This document shows, piece after piece, positions 7,735-15,879 of a DNA stretch of 64,000 bases. Both the position numbers and the translations under genes were made by a program. Within the stretch, counting starts at the first letter, position 1, and each line of letters starts with the position of its first letter. The stretch lies in assembly GCF_044647545.1 (NCBI RefSeq), contig NZ_CP172818.1, one strand, 5' to 3'. The DNA is from Escherichia coli. GTDB taxonomy: Bacteria; Pseudomonadota; Gammaproteobacteria; Enterobacterales; Enterobacteriaceae. The notes below the pieces were generated by a model. It was not told the DNA's origin. It saw only the letters and a program-made list of their open reading frames with translations, and ran no database searches.

Positions 7735-8975
7735 CAGGGTTTTACCCCCGTGTTTTCAGTTTCTACCCGATCCTGCGTTTCCATTGTCGGTTGTGCGGGG
7801 GGATCAACCTGCGCCAGACGTGGCGTGTGTGCCGGAAGCCAGCCAACCAGCGCCGGGAAGTGGCGTAAAAAGTGGAACGCCAGCACGCTTTTAGTCAGGT
7901 TCCACCAGGTGCGTTTGGGCAGCATGGTTTCATCCACCTGCTGACAATCTGCGGCGATGATGCCGTTCAGATTATCGCGCAGCGTCTGGTTAAAATGACG
8001 ATCGTGGATGATGACATTTGCTTCGAGATTCAGTGACAAACTGAGCGGATCGAGATTACTGGACCCTACTGTCGCCCAGTGATCGTCCATCAATGCTACT
8101 TTGCCGTGGAGCGGGCGGCGGCGGTACTCAAAAACCTGAACGCCGCCTTTAACCAGATAGTTATACAGCAAACGCGCACCGACTCTGACAATCGGCATAT
8201 CCGGTTCGCCCTGAATGATCAGTTTGATCCGCACCCCGCGCCGTGCCGCTTTACGCAAGGCGTGTAAAAATCGATAGCCGGGGAAGAAGTAGGCGTTGGC
8301 GATAATCACTTCTCGCCGCGCCTGAGTGAGCATTTTCAGATAGTGACGTTCAATATCATCGCGATGTTCTTCGTTATCGCGCCAGACCAGCAATACCTGC
8401 GCTTCTCCCGGCTGGCGGTTCTCTTCCGCTTTGTGATGACGTCGCCACCAGCGTCGTGCCGCGCTCTGTCCTGGCAGGTTTTCCAGTTCAAATTGCAGAA
8501 TATCTTCGACAATCGGCCCTTCAAGGCGCACCGCGTAATCCTGTTTAGCCTCTGGACCGTAGCTGGACATATGCTCGGCGGAGTAATTCAGCCCGCCAAT
8601 AAAGGCGATAAGCGCGTCGATCACCACAATTTTGCGATGCATCCGGCGAAACACATTGGTGCGCATACCAAAAAGGCGCGGGCGGGGATCGTAGTAGCGA
8701 AATACCACGCCAGCTGCCGTCAGTTCATTGACAAACTCATCGCTGAGATCCGGCGAACCGTAGCCATCCAGCAAGACTTCCGCTTTCACCCCGCGTTGCG
8801 CTGCTGCCAGTAGCGCCGCATGCAGCTGTTTGCCGACGTCATCCTCAAACCAGATAAACGTTTCAAGAATGATGCGTTCTTGCGCCTCGCCAATCGCCTT
8901 AAACACCGCGGGATAATATTGCTCGCCGTTTTCCAGCAACTGGATCTTATTGCCTTCGCGCCAGCTACATTTCAT
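7734..8975 (-). CDS. clsB: Cardiolipin synthase B (phospholipase D family)
   Basis: 413 aa ORF with HxK-type PLD motifs; overlaps ybhP. Confidence 0.95.
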
Positions 8976-9733
8976 AAATGAATCTCCGCACTTAAAGGGG
9001 CATGATCAGAAAGGTGTCGCCATGTCCGCAGCGGCAACGCGGTTGGCGCGCTGGCGCTGGCATTTTTGACGTAGATCCTGTCCAGTCGTAGTAGAGGAAA
9101 TTGCACCGGAAACGTGCGCGCCGGGCGTCCGTGGGCGCGGGTAAAAATCTCATCCAGTCCGGCCTGCACTTTTAACGGATGATTAGCTTTTTGCCGCCAG
9201 TCATTGAAATCACCCGCCACCAATACCGGTTCGCCGTCCGGTAGCTCATTCACCCATTCGGCGAGCATCGCAAGCTGCGCCTGACGGTGCGCCTCACGCA
9301 GGCCCAGATGTACGCACATCACATGAATCGCTTTCCCGGTCATCGGCGGCACAATGCGGCAGTAGAGCACGCCGCGCTTTTCCGCACCATCGACCGAAAC
9401 ATCACGATTCTCATAATGTTCAATGGGATAACGTGAAAGAACCGCATTACCGTGATGTCCTTCCGGGTATACGGCATTGCGACCGTAGGCGAAATCGCTC
9501 CACATGGTGTCGGCGAGAAACTCGTAGTGCGAGGTATCGGGCCAGTTTTCCACATGCAGCGGATGAACTTCGTGCGCGCCCATCACTTCCTGCAGGCAAA
9601 CAATATCGGCACTGACGGTACGCACGGCGTCGCGAAGTTCCGGCAAAATGAAGCGTCGGTTAAACGCGGTAAAGCCTTTGTGAATATTGATGGTGAGCAC
9701 CTTGAACGAAAATTGTTGTGTTTGATCGGGCAT
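8972..9733 (-). CDS. ybhP: Endonuclease/exonuclease/phosphatase family protein
   Basis: 253 aa ORF, first gene of the ybhP-clsB-ybhN operon. Confidence 0.9.
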
Positions 9734-9865
9734 AATTTTCCTGTCTTTGCCTCTTATCTCATTGAAATAGTGTAGTCGGCGTCACAAAAAGGTGCGGTCT
9801 TACGGAATTTTCCGTAAAGTTCGGTACTCTGAATAAGTAGAGATAAATTCTTCAGGAGAGAAGCC

Positions 9866-10276
9866 ATGAAGTGGCAACAACGTGTTCGTGTCGCAACGGG
9901 TCTAAGTTGCTGGCAGATTATGTTGCATTTACTGGTAGTGGCGCTGCTGGTGGTGGGCTGGATGAGTAAGACTCTGGTTCACGTCGGCGTGGGATTATGC
10001 GCACTGTATTGTGTCACGGTAGTGATGATGCTGGTGTTTCAGCGCCACCCCGAGCAACGCTGGCGTGAGGTGGCAGACGTGCTGGAAGAGCTGACCACGA
10101 CCTGGTATTTTGGTGCAGCGCTGATTGTGCTGTGGCTGTTGTCCCGCGTACTGGAAAACAACTTTTTGCTGGCAATTGCAGGGCTGGCAATCCTTGCTGG
10201 CCCGGCGGTAGTGTCTTTGCTGGCGAAAGATAAGAAGTTACATCACCTTACGTCTAAACATCGCGTACGCCGCTGA
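9866..10276 (+). CDS. ybhQ: Inner membrane protein
   Basis: 136 aa hydrophobic ORF; 3' end overlaps convergent ybhR. Confidence 0.85.
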
Positions 10277-11344
10277 CCCTGTCGTGGCCGTTATCACCAG
10301 TAGCGGCCACAAACTATTCCACACAATATCCAGACTCGCATCCTTCAAATAAATCTGCTTGGTAATGTCCGTAAAGTGGCGAATAGGGTTAATCCACGTC
10401 AGATTTTGCAGCCACACTGGCATGTTTTCCACCGGCGAAACGTAACCGGAAAGGAGAATGGCGGGCATCATAAAGACAAACACGCCGATAAACGCCTGCT
10501 GTTGTGTCGAGCAGAGTGATGAAATCAACAGACCGAAGCCTACCAGCGATAAACCGTAAATCACCATCGTAAAGTAGAACAGCGCCAGCGATCCGGCGAA
10601 GGGGATTTGATACGCCCAGATACCAATCGCCAGCACAATGGTGGCCTGGAAGGTGGCGACAATTAATGCCGGTACGGCCTTGCCGATGAATATCTGCCAG
10701 GTGGTGAGCGGCGAAACCAGTAACTGATCGAGCGTACCTTGTTCACGTTCGCGGGCGACGGAAAGTGAAGTGACGATCATTACGCCGATAGTGGTGATCA
10801 TGGCGATCAGCGACGGCACCACAAACCATTTGTAGTCGAGATTCGGGTTATACCAGTTGCGTACCACCAGCTCGCTGTTGTTGGGTTTCGGTTTTCCTTC
10901 CAGCAGCTCCTGCTGATAATTTTTGACGATCTGTTGCAGGTAGTTGGCGGCAATTTGCGCACTGTTGGAGTTACGCCCGTCTAGGATCAACTGTAACGGC
11001 GCGGTCTGGAAGGTATCCAGTTTGCGCGAGAAGTCAGCCGGGAAACGCACCAGGAGTAACGCCTTTTGTGTGTCGATGGTCGGGCGGATCTCCTGCGGGC
11101 TTTTCAGCAGCAGCACATGGGTAAAGGCGCTGGCGCGGGCAAAACGTTGGGTCAGCTCCACCGAATGCTCGCCGTTATCTTCATCGTAGATGGCGATGGT
11201 GGCGTTAGTCACTTCCAGCGTGGCGGCGAACGGGAACAGGATCACCTGAATCAGCACGGGTAAAATAAGAATCGCACGGGTTTGCGGTTCGCGCAGCAGC
11301 GACTGCAACTCTTTGCGGATTAACGTCCATAAGCGATGAAACAT
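10238..11344 (-). CDS. ybhR: ABC-2 type efflux permease
   Basis: 368 aa ORF. Confidence 0.9.
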
Positions 11345-11354
11345 GCTCTTCTCC

Positions 11355-12480
11355 CTAATCCAGCCGACGTTTGGTTTTCAGCCACGTCAGGCCGATAAAC
11401 ATCACCGCCGAAGCGATCAAAAACAGCACGTTTACCACCAGCACCACTGGAATATTCCCGGCGAGGAACAGGCTTTGCAGGGTGCTGACGAAATAACGAG
11501 CGGGAATAATGTACGTCACCGCGCGGATCACCGCGGGCATACTGTCGATCTGAAAAATAAAGCCGGAAAGCATAATCGACGGCAGGAACGCGGCGTTCAG
11601 GGCGACCTGAGCGGCATTGAACTGGTTGCGGGTAATCGTGGAAATCAGTAGCCCCATCCCCAGGGTACTGAGTAAAAACAGGCTGGAGATAAAAAACAGA
11701 ATCAGCAGCGACCCGCGATACGGCACGCCGAGAATAAACACCGACACCAGCATACACAGCAACATCGCCAGCATCCCGAGAAAGTAATAAGGGATCAGCT
11801 TACACAGCAGCAGCTCCGTGCGGGTAATCTCCGTAGAGAGCAAAGCCTCCATGGTGCCGCGTTCCCATTCTCGCGCCACCACCAGCGAGGTGAGAATCGC
11901 ACCGATGACCGTCATGATAATAGTCACCGCACCGGGGATAATAAAGTGCTGGCTTATCGCCGCCGGGTTAAACCAGTAGCGGGTTTGTACATCAATAAGC
12001 GGTTCAAAAGTCTGCCCGTTATCCTCCGCGCGCTGCATTTGCCAGATCTGCCAGATCCCTTCGACATACCCCTGCACAAAGTTAGCGGTATTCGGCTCAC
12101 TGCCGTCGGTGATCACCTGAATCGGTGCAATGGCGTTGGCGCGCTCCATCTGTTCGGCGAAATCCACCGGAATAACCACCAGACCGCGAATTTTCCCCGC
12201 CTGCATTTTGGCGATCAGTTCCTGACGGTTATCGCTGATGGTGGCGTCGATGTAGGGCGAACCGGTCATGGTGTGGGTGAAATCCAGCGCCGCTTCGCTA
12301 CGCTGTTCCAGTAAAATCCCGACCCGCAGCTTGCTGGAGTCGAGGTTAATGCCGTAACCAAAAATAAACAGCAGTAGCAGCGGGATCACCACCGCAATCA
12401 GCCAGCTACTCGGATCGCGAACGATCTGCCGCGTCTCTTTGACGCACAGTGCCCGCACGCGACGCCAGGACAGGATCGGA

Positions 12481-12488
<8 letters not shown>
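11355..12488 (-). CDS. ybhS: ABC-2 type efflux permease
   Basis: ORF 11355..12494; start trimmed to give the expected 377 aa. Confidence 0.9.

Positions 12489-15879
<3,391 letters not shown>

Follow-up and report, generated by a model that had tools for sequence, protein, structure and literature searches.

Conserved 39-nt tail-to-tail overlap of the ybhQ and ybhR genes in Escherichia coli and related Enterobacteriaceae

The ybhQ-ybhR junction

The window, a stretch of 64,000 nucleotides of E. coli DNA, contains the genes ybhQ and ybhR in convergent orientation. The list of open reading frames (ORFs) and the sequence agree that the 3' ends of the two coding regions have 39 nt in common (Table 1). 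The shared segment is read as TTA CAT CAC CTT ACG TCT AAA CAT CGC GTA CGC CGC TGA on the plus strand and as TCA GCG GCG TAC GCG ATG TTT AGA CGT AAG GTG ATG TAA on the minus strand. Throughout this segment the sequence gives an exact antisense codon alignment of the two frames. CecR represses the cecR-ybhGFSR operon, in which ybhR is the final gene (PMC12998191).

Table 1. Positions of the genes, the shared segment, the RNA hairpin and the mapped transcript ends in the window
Feature	Position	Strand	Description
ybhQ CDS	9866..10276	+	136-aa inner-membrane protein, uncharacterised; ORF list, Pfam PF11076, RefSeq
ybhR CDS	10238..11344	-	368-aa ABC-2 permease; ORF list, Pfam ABC2_membrane_3, RefSeq
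Shared 39-nt segment	10238..10276	both	ybhQ codons 125-136 and stop, antisense in register to ybhR codons 357-368 and stop
ybhQ stop TGA	10274..10276	+	complement is ybhR Ser357 TCA
ybhR stop TAA	10238..10240	-	complement is ybhQ Leu125 TTA
11-bp hairpin GTGGCCGTTAT-CACCA-GTAGCGGCCAC	10284..10310		inside ybhR CDS; begins 8 nt past the ybhQ stop; RNA fold
Dominant ybhQ mRNA 3' end	10316	+	MG1655 825080; 40 nt past the stop and 6 nt past the hairpin, inside ybhR
Rho termination region, peak (coarse)	10418	+	MG1655 825182, inside ybhR; ybhQ read-through; Rho score 3.9, p=5e-7
Rho termination region, peak (coarse)	10165	-	MG1655 824929, inside ybhQ; read-through past the ybhR stop; Rho score 3.85, p=2e-7

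The same overlap is annotated elsewhere in the species. It is identical in the RefSeq/PGAP annotation of a 100%-identical E. coli genome and also present in RefSeq for K-12 MG1655 (ybhQ 824630..825040, ybhR 825002..826108). A 1-kb query has matches in 5,423 of 5,426 complete E. coli genomes. With a 141-nt query centred on the junction, 5,423 genomes match at 95% identity or more, with both ybhQ and ybhR annotated beneath the match. Two of the 5,428 matching places of the ybhP-ybhQ-ybhR segment in this collection are located on plasmids, and a few genomes carry two copies.

The length of the overlap can be compared with expectation. In this antisense register only the codons TTA, CTA and TCA of one frame give stops in the opposite frame, and ybhR contains 14 of them in 369 codons. 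From these counts, the chance that the opposite frame reads in for at least 12 codons is about 0.63, so that in the absence of a spacer a length of 39 nt is unremarkable. The overlap length is thus as expected without a spacer; the persistence of exactly 39 nt across species is not a matter of chance.

Both genes and both 3' ends are genuine

The Pfam profile PF11076 (YbhQ) aligns to residues 1–132 of the 136 residues of YbhQ (E=2.4e-73) and PF12698 (ABC2_membrane_3) to residues 25–359 of the 368 residues of YbhR (E=3.8e-51). Rates of substitution were determined on 46 gaplessly aligned loci; in-frame indels at the junction distort the wider set. In these loci dN/dS is 0.11 for the ybhQ core (codons 1–124) and 0.04 for the ybhR body (codons 237–356). 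The main YbhQ protein cluster comprises 1,122 member sequences with a length of 136 aa. Inspection of the sequence and the ORF list revealed no earlier in-frame stop within either ORF.

A preliminary description of this DNA had proposed a convergent 39-nt overlap of the two 3' ends at 10238–10276, and the ORF list, the sequence and RefSeq bear this out. It had also considered that one of the two ORFs might end sooner. Neither does: the profiles extend over nearly the full length of both proteins and the stops are conserved across genera.

A few YbhQ variants of 160–165 aa (P0002, P0003, P0008, P0029, P0018; window 10182 frame) originate from read-set assemblies. They are explained by single-base frameshifts in the last codons, which lead into another antisense frame of ybhR and would extend the overlap to about 115 nt. 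Each has 1–5 members, compared to the 1,122 sequences of normal length. In E. albertii NBRC 107761 (L006 529-939) codon 16 of ybhQ is changed from TGG to TAG while the 39-nt junction with ybhR is intact; the gene could be a pseudogene or the change a sequencing error. The ybhR frame is broken in Leclercia adecarboxylata NCTC13032, Kluyvera genomosp. 3 and one assembly of Citrobacter amalonaticus (L023, L038 and L049). In E. coli UTAK-1 (L002 2039-3260) ybhR and ybhS are annotated as frameshifted pseudogenes. These disrupted ybhR and ybhS frames could be assembly errors or reflect a true loss of the exporter.

Junction states across species

Both stops were located in each of the 80 loci listed among 158 or more ybhQ loci, with one genome per species. 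The overlap is exactly 39 nt in 62 of these 80 loci, which belong to more than 15 enterobacterial genera (Escherichia, Salmonella, Citrobacter, Leclercia, Kluyvera, Enterobacter, Yokenella, Trabulsiella, Pluralibacter, Superficieibacter, Atlantibacter, Siccibacter, Mangrovibacter, Buttiauxella, Cedecea, some Kosakonia and others). A single locus, from Kosakonia cowanii, has an overlap of 48 nt. In 13 loci ybhQ and ybhR are separated by a gap of 2–206 nt and YbhQ carries a different, longer tail. One gene of the pair is disrupted in the remaining four.

The tail of YbhR is the same in species with overlap and with gap and ends with [VI][MA]. The tail of YbhQ varies among the overlap species, following the pattern L[HRG][HDN][LFIV][TASP][SAPT][KE]H[RHSPQ][VI][RG][RH]. 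The stop of ybhR is TAG, TAA or TGA across species, and codon 125 of ybhQ is correspondingly CTA or TTA (Leu) or TCA (Ser).

The gap loci derive from four Kosakonia-type genomes, Raoultella, Enterobacter JUb54, two Phytobacter species and the loci L056, L060 and L079. They have a long YbhQ tail in common (..[LR][PY][AP]K[SA]FGL[HQ]Q.G.AANP..HR*), which in Phytobacter is shortened to ..PSKSFKV*. The spacers of the gap loci possess their own hairpins, in some cases with a U-tract following on the side of ybhR. In two Raoultella loci (L073 3435-3619 and L078 3438-3645) the spacer between ybhQ and ybhR holds an insert of 183–206 nt with strong secondary structure. This insert includes a unit of about 60 nt (..GAGCGAGGAAGCCAACGCAGAGGCAGCC.GAACGATGACGG..) in two copies and resembles a small repetitive extragenic element.

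Asymmetric constraint in the shared segment

The two frames are constrained to a different extent in the shared segment. For the 11 shared sense codons of the 46 gapless loci, dN/dS is 0.24 in the ybhR frame and 0.69 in the ybhQ frame. In the same loci dS of ybhQ falls from 1.06 in the core to 0.36 in the shared codons, because the silent sites of ybhQ are first codon positions of ybhR. From this asymmetry and the fall in dS it follows that YbhR sets the shared sequence and that the tail of YbhQ is largely a by-product.

The stop of ybhQ is nevertheless held. In the 63 overlap loci the codon for Ser357 of ybhR is TCA in 62 cases and CTA in one, which gives an opposite-strand stop in all of them. 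In the 13 gap loci the codon is TCA eight times, TCG four times and ACA once. Among serine codons at this position, TCA therefore accounts for 62 of 62 in overlap loci against 8 of 12 in gap loci (Fisher p=4e-4, uncorrected for phylogeny). In the overlap loci the four-fold degenerate sites next to Ser357 have an entropy of 1.5–1.9 bits. The third positions of Ala358 and Ala359 are G in 63/63 and 61/63 overlap loci, respectively, and more variable in gap loci (counts uncorrected for phylogeny). These positions correspond to the first positions of the last two codons of ybhQ, both of which encode basic residues. Judging from this codon choice, the stop of ybhQ and its last two basic residues appear to be kept by selection.

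Transcript ends and Rho-dependent termination

Coordinates of MG1655 were converted to the window with an offset of 814764 taken from the K-12 annotation. The conversion was cross-checked by an entry at 824690 described as 'internal, 60'. As no DNA separates the two genes, both transcripts have to extend into the partner gene before they end. A Term-seq 3' end at 825080 on the plus strand, found under two growth conditions, is classified as 'primary ybhQ, antisense ybhR' (Adams et al. 2021, PMC7815308 Supplementary file 1). It is the dominant end of the ybhQ mRNA. Rho termination regions were identified on both strands from bicyclomycin data (Adams et al. 2021, PMC7815308 Supplementary file 2); the peak positions in Table 1 are coarse because 800-nt windows were used. 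For ybhR no discrete 3' end is listed in that study (PMC7815308). The entry at 824690 corresponds to 9926 in the window (plus strand) and is a 3' end of the class 'internal', 60 nt into ybhQ, with a Rho score of 0.6 (PMC7815308). It could represent premature termination or a processing site.

A consensus scan detected no intrinsic terminator downstream of the stop of ybhQ or ybhR. The nearest consensus match (10194–10208, plus strand) is located upstream of the ybhQ stop. A search of 8000–13000 against Rfam at E≤1 returned two chance matches only, both far under the gathering scores. The minus-strand RNA below the ybhR stop folds no better than shuffled sequences (z=+0.46). The C/G ratio is about 1.5–2 downstream of both stops, compared to 0.94 for the window. 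In windows of 80 nt the counts of C and G are 28/15 and 25/12 on the plus strand past the ybhQ stop and range from 25/16 to 31/13 on the minus strand past the ybhR stop, with a ratio of 1.67 over 10237..10165. The RNA downstream of each stop is thus C-rich and G-poor, as expected for Rho loading on untranslated antisense RNA.

Since the mapped ends lie inside the opposite genes, the two mRNAs are complementary over at least about 80 nt (10238..10316). Probably this complementarity reaches about 150 nt. The preliminary description had named strand-specific RNA-seq and 3'-end mapping as the check on the overlap, and the published data place the ybhQ 3' end at 10316, inside ybhR. Its expectation of mutually antisense transcripts agrees with this end, with the Rho regions on both strands (10418 and 10165) and with an ExcludonFinder entry. 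In that compilation ybhQ-ybhR is one of 165 convergent excludons that appear in 50% or more of the E. coli RNA-seq samples (ExcludonFinder 2025, PMC12288877).

A hairpin embedded in ybhR

The hairpin between the ybhQ stop and the mapped ybhQ 3' end is formed by codons of ybhR (..W-P-L-L-V-I-A-A-T..). It is found in all of the 56 distinct overlap sequences, and its conservation extends over more than 60 species. In an alignment of 64 sequences, 89.8% of the cells are paired, compared to 24–58% when the 3' arm is slid along the sequence. Two pairs (7 cells) are altered on both sides and many of the changes convert G-C to G-U. In the arm codons, C in the third position of GCC is found in 63/63 loci, CCG in 60/63 and the rare codon ATA in 49/63 (uncorrected for phylogeny). 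No U-tract is present beside the hairpin on either strand (flanks ..CCCTGTC and AAACTATTCC), and a consensus scan of 10277–10330 gave no terminator-like site on either strand.

If the hairpin were tied to the overlap, it should be lost in loci with a spacer. This idea was discarded, since the hairpin is kept in Raoultella, L079 and L031. Overall it is retained in most gap loci and weakened in those of the Kosakonia type. Therefore it is not claimed to exist solely for ybhQ, and its conservation may serve something besides the ybhQ 3' end. We infer that this hairpin either defines or protects the point at which the ybhQ mRNA ends.

History of the junction

In a tree of YbhR and YbhS, the loci with a gap make up at least five clades that are nested within groups with the overlap, and all of the deepest branches carry the overlap. 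This nesting suggests that the overlap is ancestral. The tree of the YbhQ core agrees with that of YbhR and YbhS. Thus the long tail was not brought in by a transferred ybhQ, and lateral transfer of the whole long-tail gene is ruled out. A long tail that is homologous among the gap loci and not imported suggests that the tail is old and that the overlap arose repeatedly by deletion. A tree of clsB and ybhP was unusable for several genera in which those genes are missing upstream.

Two readings of this history are maintained. In one of them, the long tail and the spacer would be old and the overlap would have formed several times by deletion. This is in line with a junction that varies by -1 to +3 codons among the overlap genera. 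Since the conserved tail of YbhR fixes both stops, the overlap comes out at exactly 39 nt whenever the two genes are fused in register. In the other reading the overlap would be old and the long-tail segment would have spread by short-patch recombination of the last ~150 nt.

In distant homologues of YbhQ (33–50% identity) the tail is short and basic, a separate hairpin follows the gene, and ybhR is not its neighbour. Hence the convergent pairing is specific to the core Enterobacteriaceae. The distant homologues have neither of the two YbhQ tail types, and two of the three contigs are too short to polarise the states. In one of these loci (L086 2501-2887) the gene order is moaCDE-ybhL-ybhQ-rhlE with all genes co-directional. 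In another (L085 68-460) ybhQ is followed by a canonical terminator, and in the third (L084 339-725) by a tRNA gene.

Interpretation

Very probably, ybhQ and ybhR form a genuine and long-standing tail-to-tail overlap that results from a missing spacer, is dominated by YbhR and has transcripts that end inside the partner gene with read-through stopped by Rho. With the spacer absent, the ybhQ frame would run in register through the antisense of the last 12 codons of ybhR and end at the TGA that is the complement of the Ser357 codon TCA. The C-terminal tail of YbhR would be the main constraint, and the last 12 residues of YbhQ would mostly be a by-product of ybhR codons, that is, a short basic peptide drifting with synonymous changes in ybhR. 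Lacking intergenic DNA, neither transcript would have a canonical terminator and each would finish within the partner gene. The ybhQ mRNA would end just 3' of the conserved hairpin within the ybhR coding region, and Rho would halt read-through of either strand on untranslated C-rich antisense RNA. The overlap, its conservation and the asymmetric constraint are established by the present comparison, the ybhQ 3' end and the Rho zones by published data. The arrangement itself seems to be simply tolerated and not to have been selected for a regulatory role.

Many long convergent overlaps are artefacts of 3' extension (Pallejà et al. 2008, PMC2478687), and a shorter ORF, or a ybhQ that is no true gene, would leave no overlap at the coding level. 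The YbhQ tail is nearly free of protein constraint (dN/dS 0.69), rare frameshifted variants of 160–165 aa exist in read-set assemblies, and the E. albertii type strain has a nonsense codon in ybhQ. Such an artefact is nevertheless extremely improbable. Neither frame contains an earlier in-frame stop, the ybhQ core is under purifying selection (0.11) and matches PF11076 end to end, and 1,122 sequences of 136 aa form the main YbhQ cluster. The stop positions are kept in 62 of the 80 listed species, the Ser357 codon is fixed as TCA only where it is needed as the ybhQ stop, and 39 nt is below the threshold of 60 nt above which artefacts dominate. The overlap might instead be retained since YbhQ needs a short basic cytoplasmic tail past its last membrane helix, and the antisense of YbhR ..AAYAMFRR.. 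happens to provide ..KHRVRR. Every form of YbhQ ends with basic residues (KH.VRR or KH.VRH in the overlap type, ..HR in the long type, ..RRIEKKRS and ..RRKEQR in distant homologues), and the last two ybhQ codons keep the C in their first position via third positions of ybhR alanine codons that are otherwise free. The rest of the tail drifts freely, as its dN/dS of 0.69 indicates, however, and related species tolerate tails of widely differing length and sequence. A need for basic residues would also account for the tolerance of the overlap but not for its origin, and we regard this explanation as quite unlikely.

A further alternative is a selected regulatory convergent excludon with mutually exclusive expression of YbhQ and the ABC exporter. 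CecR-controlled transcription of ybhGFSR into ybhQ, and of ybhQ into ybhR, would then lead to polymerase collision and/or cleavage of the duplex by RNase III. The pair is listed among the 165 convergent excludons seen in at least half of the RNA-seq samples, and excludon pairs in general show higher synteny (PMC12288877). The set was validated globally against p19 and RNase III datasets and not for each pair (PMC12288877). The convergent order and the exact overlap persist over many genera, and both transcripts reach into the opposite gene. Yet the literature yielded no reciprocal expression, RNase III or dsRNA result specific for this pair. At least five lineages have a spacer with hairpins of its own, some with U-tracts, so that the overlap is dispensable, and next to the more distant homologues of ybhQ the ybhR gene is missing altogether. 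Passive persistence is sufficient where, without a spacer, both stops are pinned by the conserved tail of YbhR. Selection for regulation is rather unlikely, and the caution of the preliminary description that the antisense overlap may be without regulatory consequence still holds. Similarly doubtful is a more elaborate proposal in which the hairpin at 10284–10310 would be a selected, coding-embedded 3'-end element of the ybhQ mRNA and, jointly with Rho, would set the length of a duplex that couples YbhQ inversely to the CecR-controlled ABC exporter.

For two poorly characterised membrane-protein genes, the results verify the ends given in the annotation. They also imply that a deletion or tag at the 3' end of either gene alters the partner gene and the ends of both transcripts. 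The pair is a clean and well-sampled case for teaching or modelling the evolution of tail-to-tail overlaps: one partner dictates the sequence, the tail of the other drifts with its stop held, and relatives show the spaced form. If the regulatory excludon were real, a small uncharacterised membrane protein would be linked to an antibiotic-responsive efflux operon. If the hairpin were a selected 3'-end element, about 75 nt of ybhR would carry three layers, namely the YbhR protein, the antisense YbhQ tail with its stop, and an RNA structure.

Comparison with known systems

Bidirectional intrinsic terminators between convergent genes were reportedly described by Ju et al. in 2019, a study that PMC7815308 cites. 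The hairpin in ybhR resembles them in that a single palindromic hairpin is able to form in both convergent RNAs. It differs in that the stem lacks an A-tract/U-tract pair and the consensus scan is negative; the combination of a G+C-rich stem with a U-tract on both strands is not present. Moreover, the hairpin is located upstream of the ybhR stop, and therefore no productive termination of ybhR by this hairpin can occur.

In a general model attributed to Dar and Sorek in 2018, Rho-dependent 3' ends are said to be trimmed back to a protecting hairpin. Similar to such trimmed ends, the stable ybhQ 3' end is found 6 nt past a hairpin without a U-tract. Here, by contrast, the hairpin is part of the coding region of the opposing gene, with arms made up of ybhR codons (W-P ... 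A-A-T). Its role may be either protection from trimming or weak intrinsic termination. Agreement with Rho-dependent termination extends to bicyclomycin-sensitive read-through on both strands and to C-rich, G-poor RNA past the stops (Adams et al. 2021). This untranslated RNA precedes the termination zone, as is characteristic of Rho-dependent terminators.

Convergent excludons are adjoining convergent genes with transcript overlap in RNA-seq, and the pair is in the E. coli list (PMC12288877). In ybhQ-ybhR, unlike in overlaps of UTRs alone, the shared region includes coding sequence, and mutually exclusive expression is a candidate property only.

Closest are the conserved convergent overlaps, where a pair of genuine genes in opposite orientation have their 3' ends in common (Huvet and Stumpf 2014, PMC4161906). 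There are 75 convergent overlapping pairs in E. coli (PMC4161906). Conserved tail-to-tail overlapping pairs in prokaryotes are attributed to Rogozin et al. 2002, as cited in PMC2478687. Of the well-characterised overlaps in 338 genomes 7% are convergent, and overlaps of more than 60 nt are mostly artefacts (PMC2478687). The genes ybhQ and ybhR are real, share 3' nucleotides and are conserved in at least two genomes, as defines a convergent overlapping pair. They also share with known cases an origin by shift or loss of a stop or spacer, the occurrence in several genomes and the dominance of one partner in the constraint. The overlap is thus ordinary and already known: it is annotated, its transcript overlap is listed, its 3' end is mapped and it is one of dozens in E. 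coli. The present analysis adds how widely the overlap is conserved, how unequally the two frames are constrained, with the ybhQ stop kept in place, the spaced form of the junction in relatives and the conserved coding-embedded hairpin that coincides with the mapped ybhQ 3' end. Compared to the known convergent overlaps nothing essential differs. The length of 39 nt is moderate; that it is kept exactly in such an unusually broad set of genera is due to the position of both stops within the conserved tail of YbhR.
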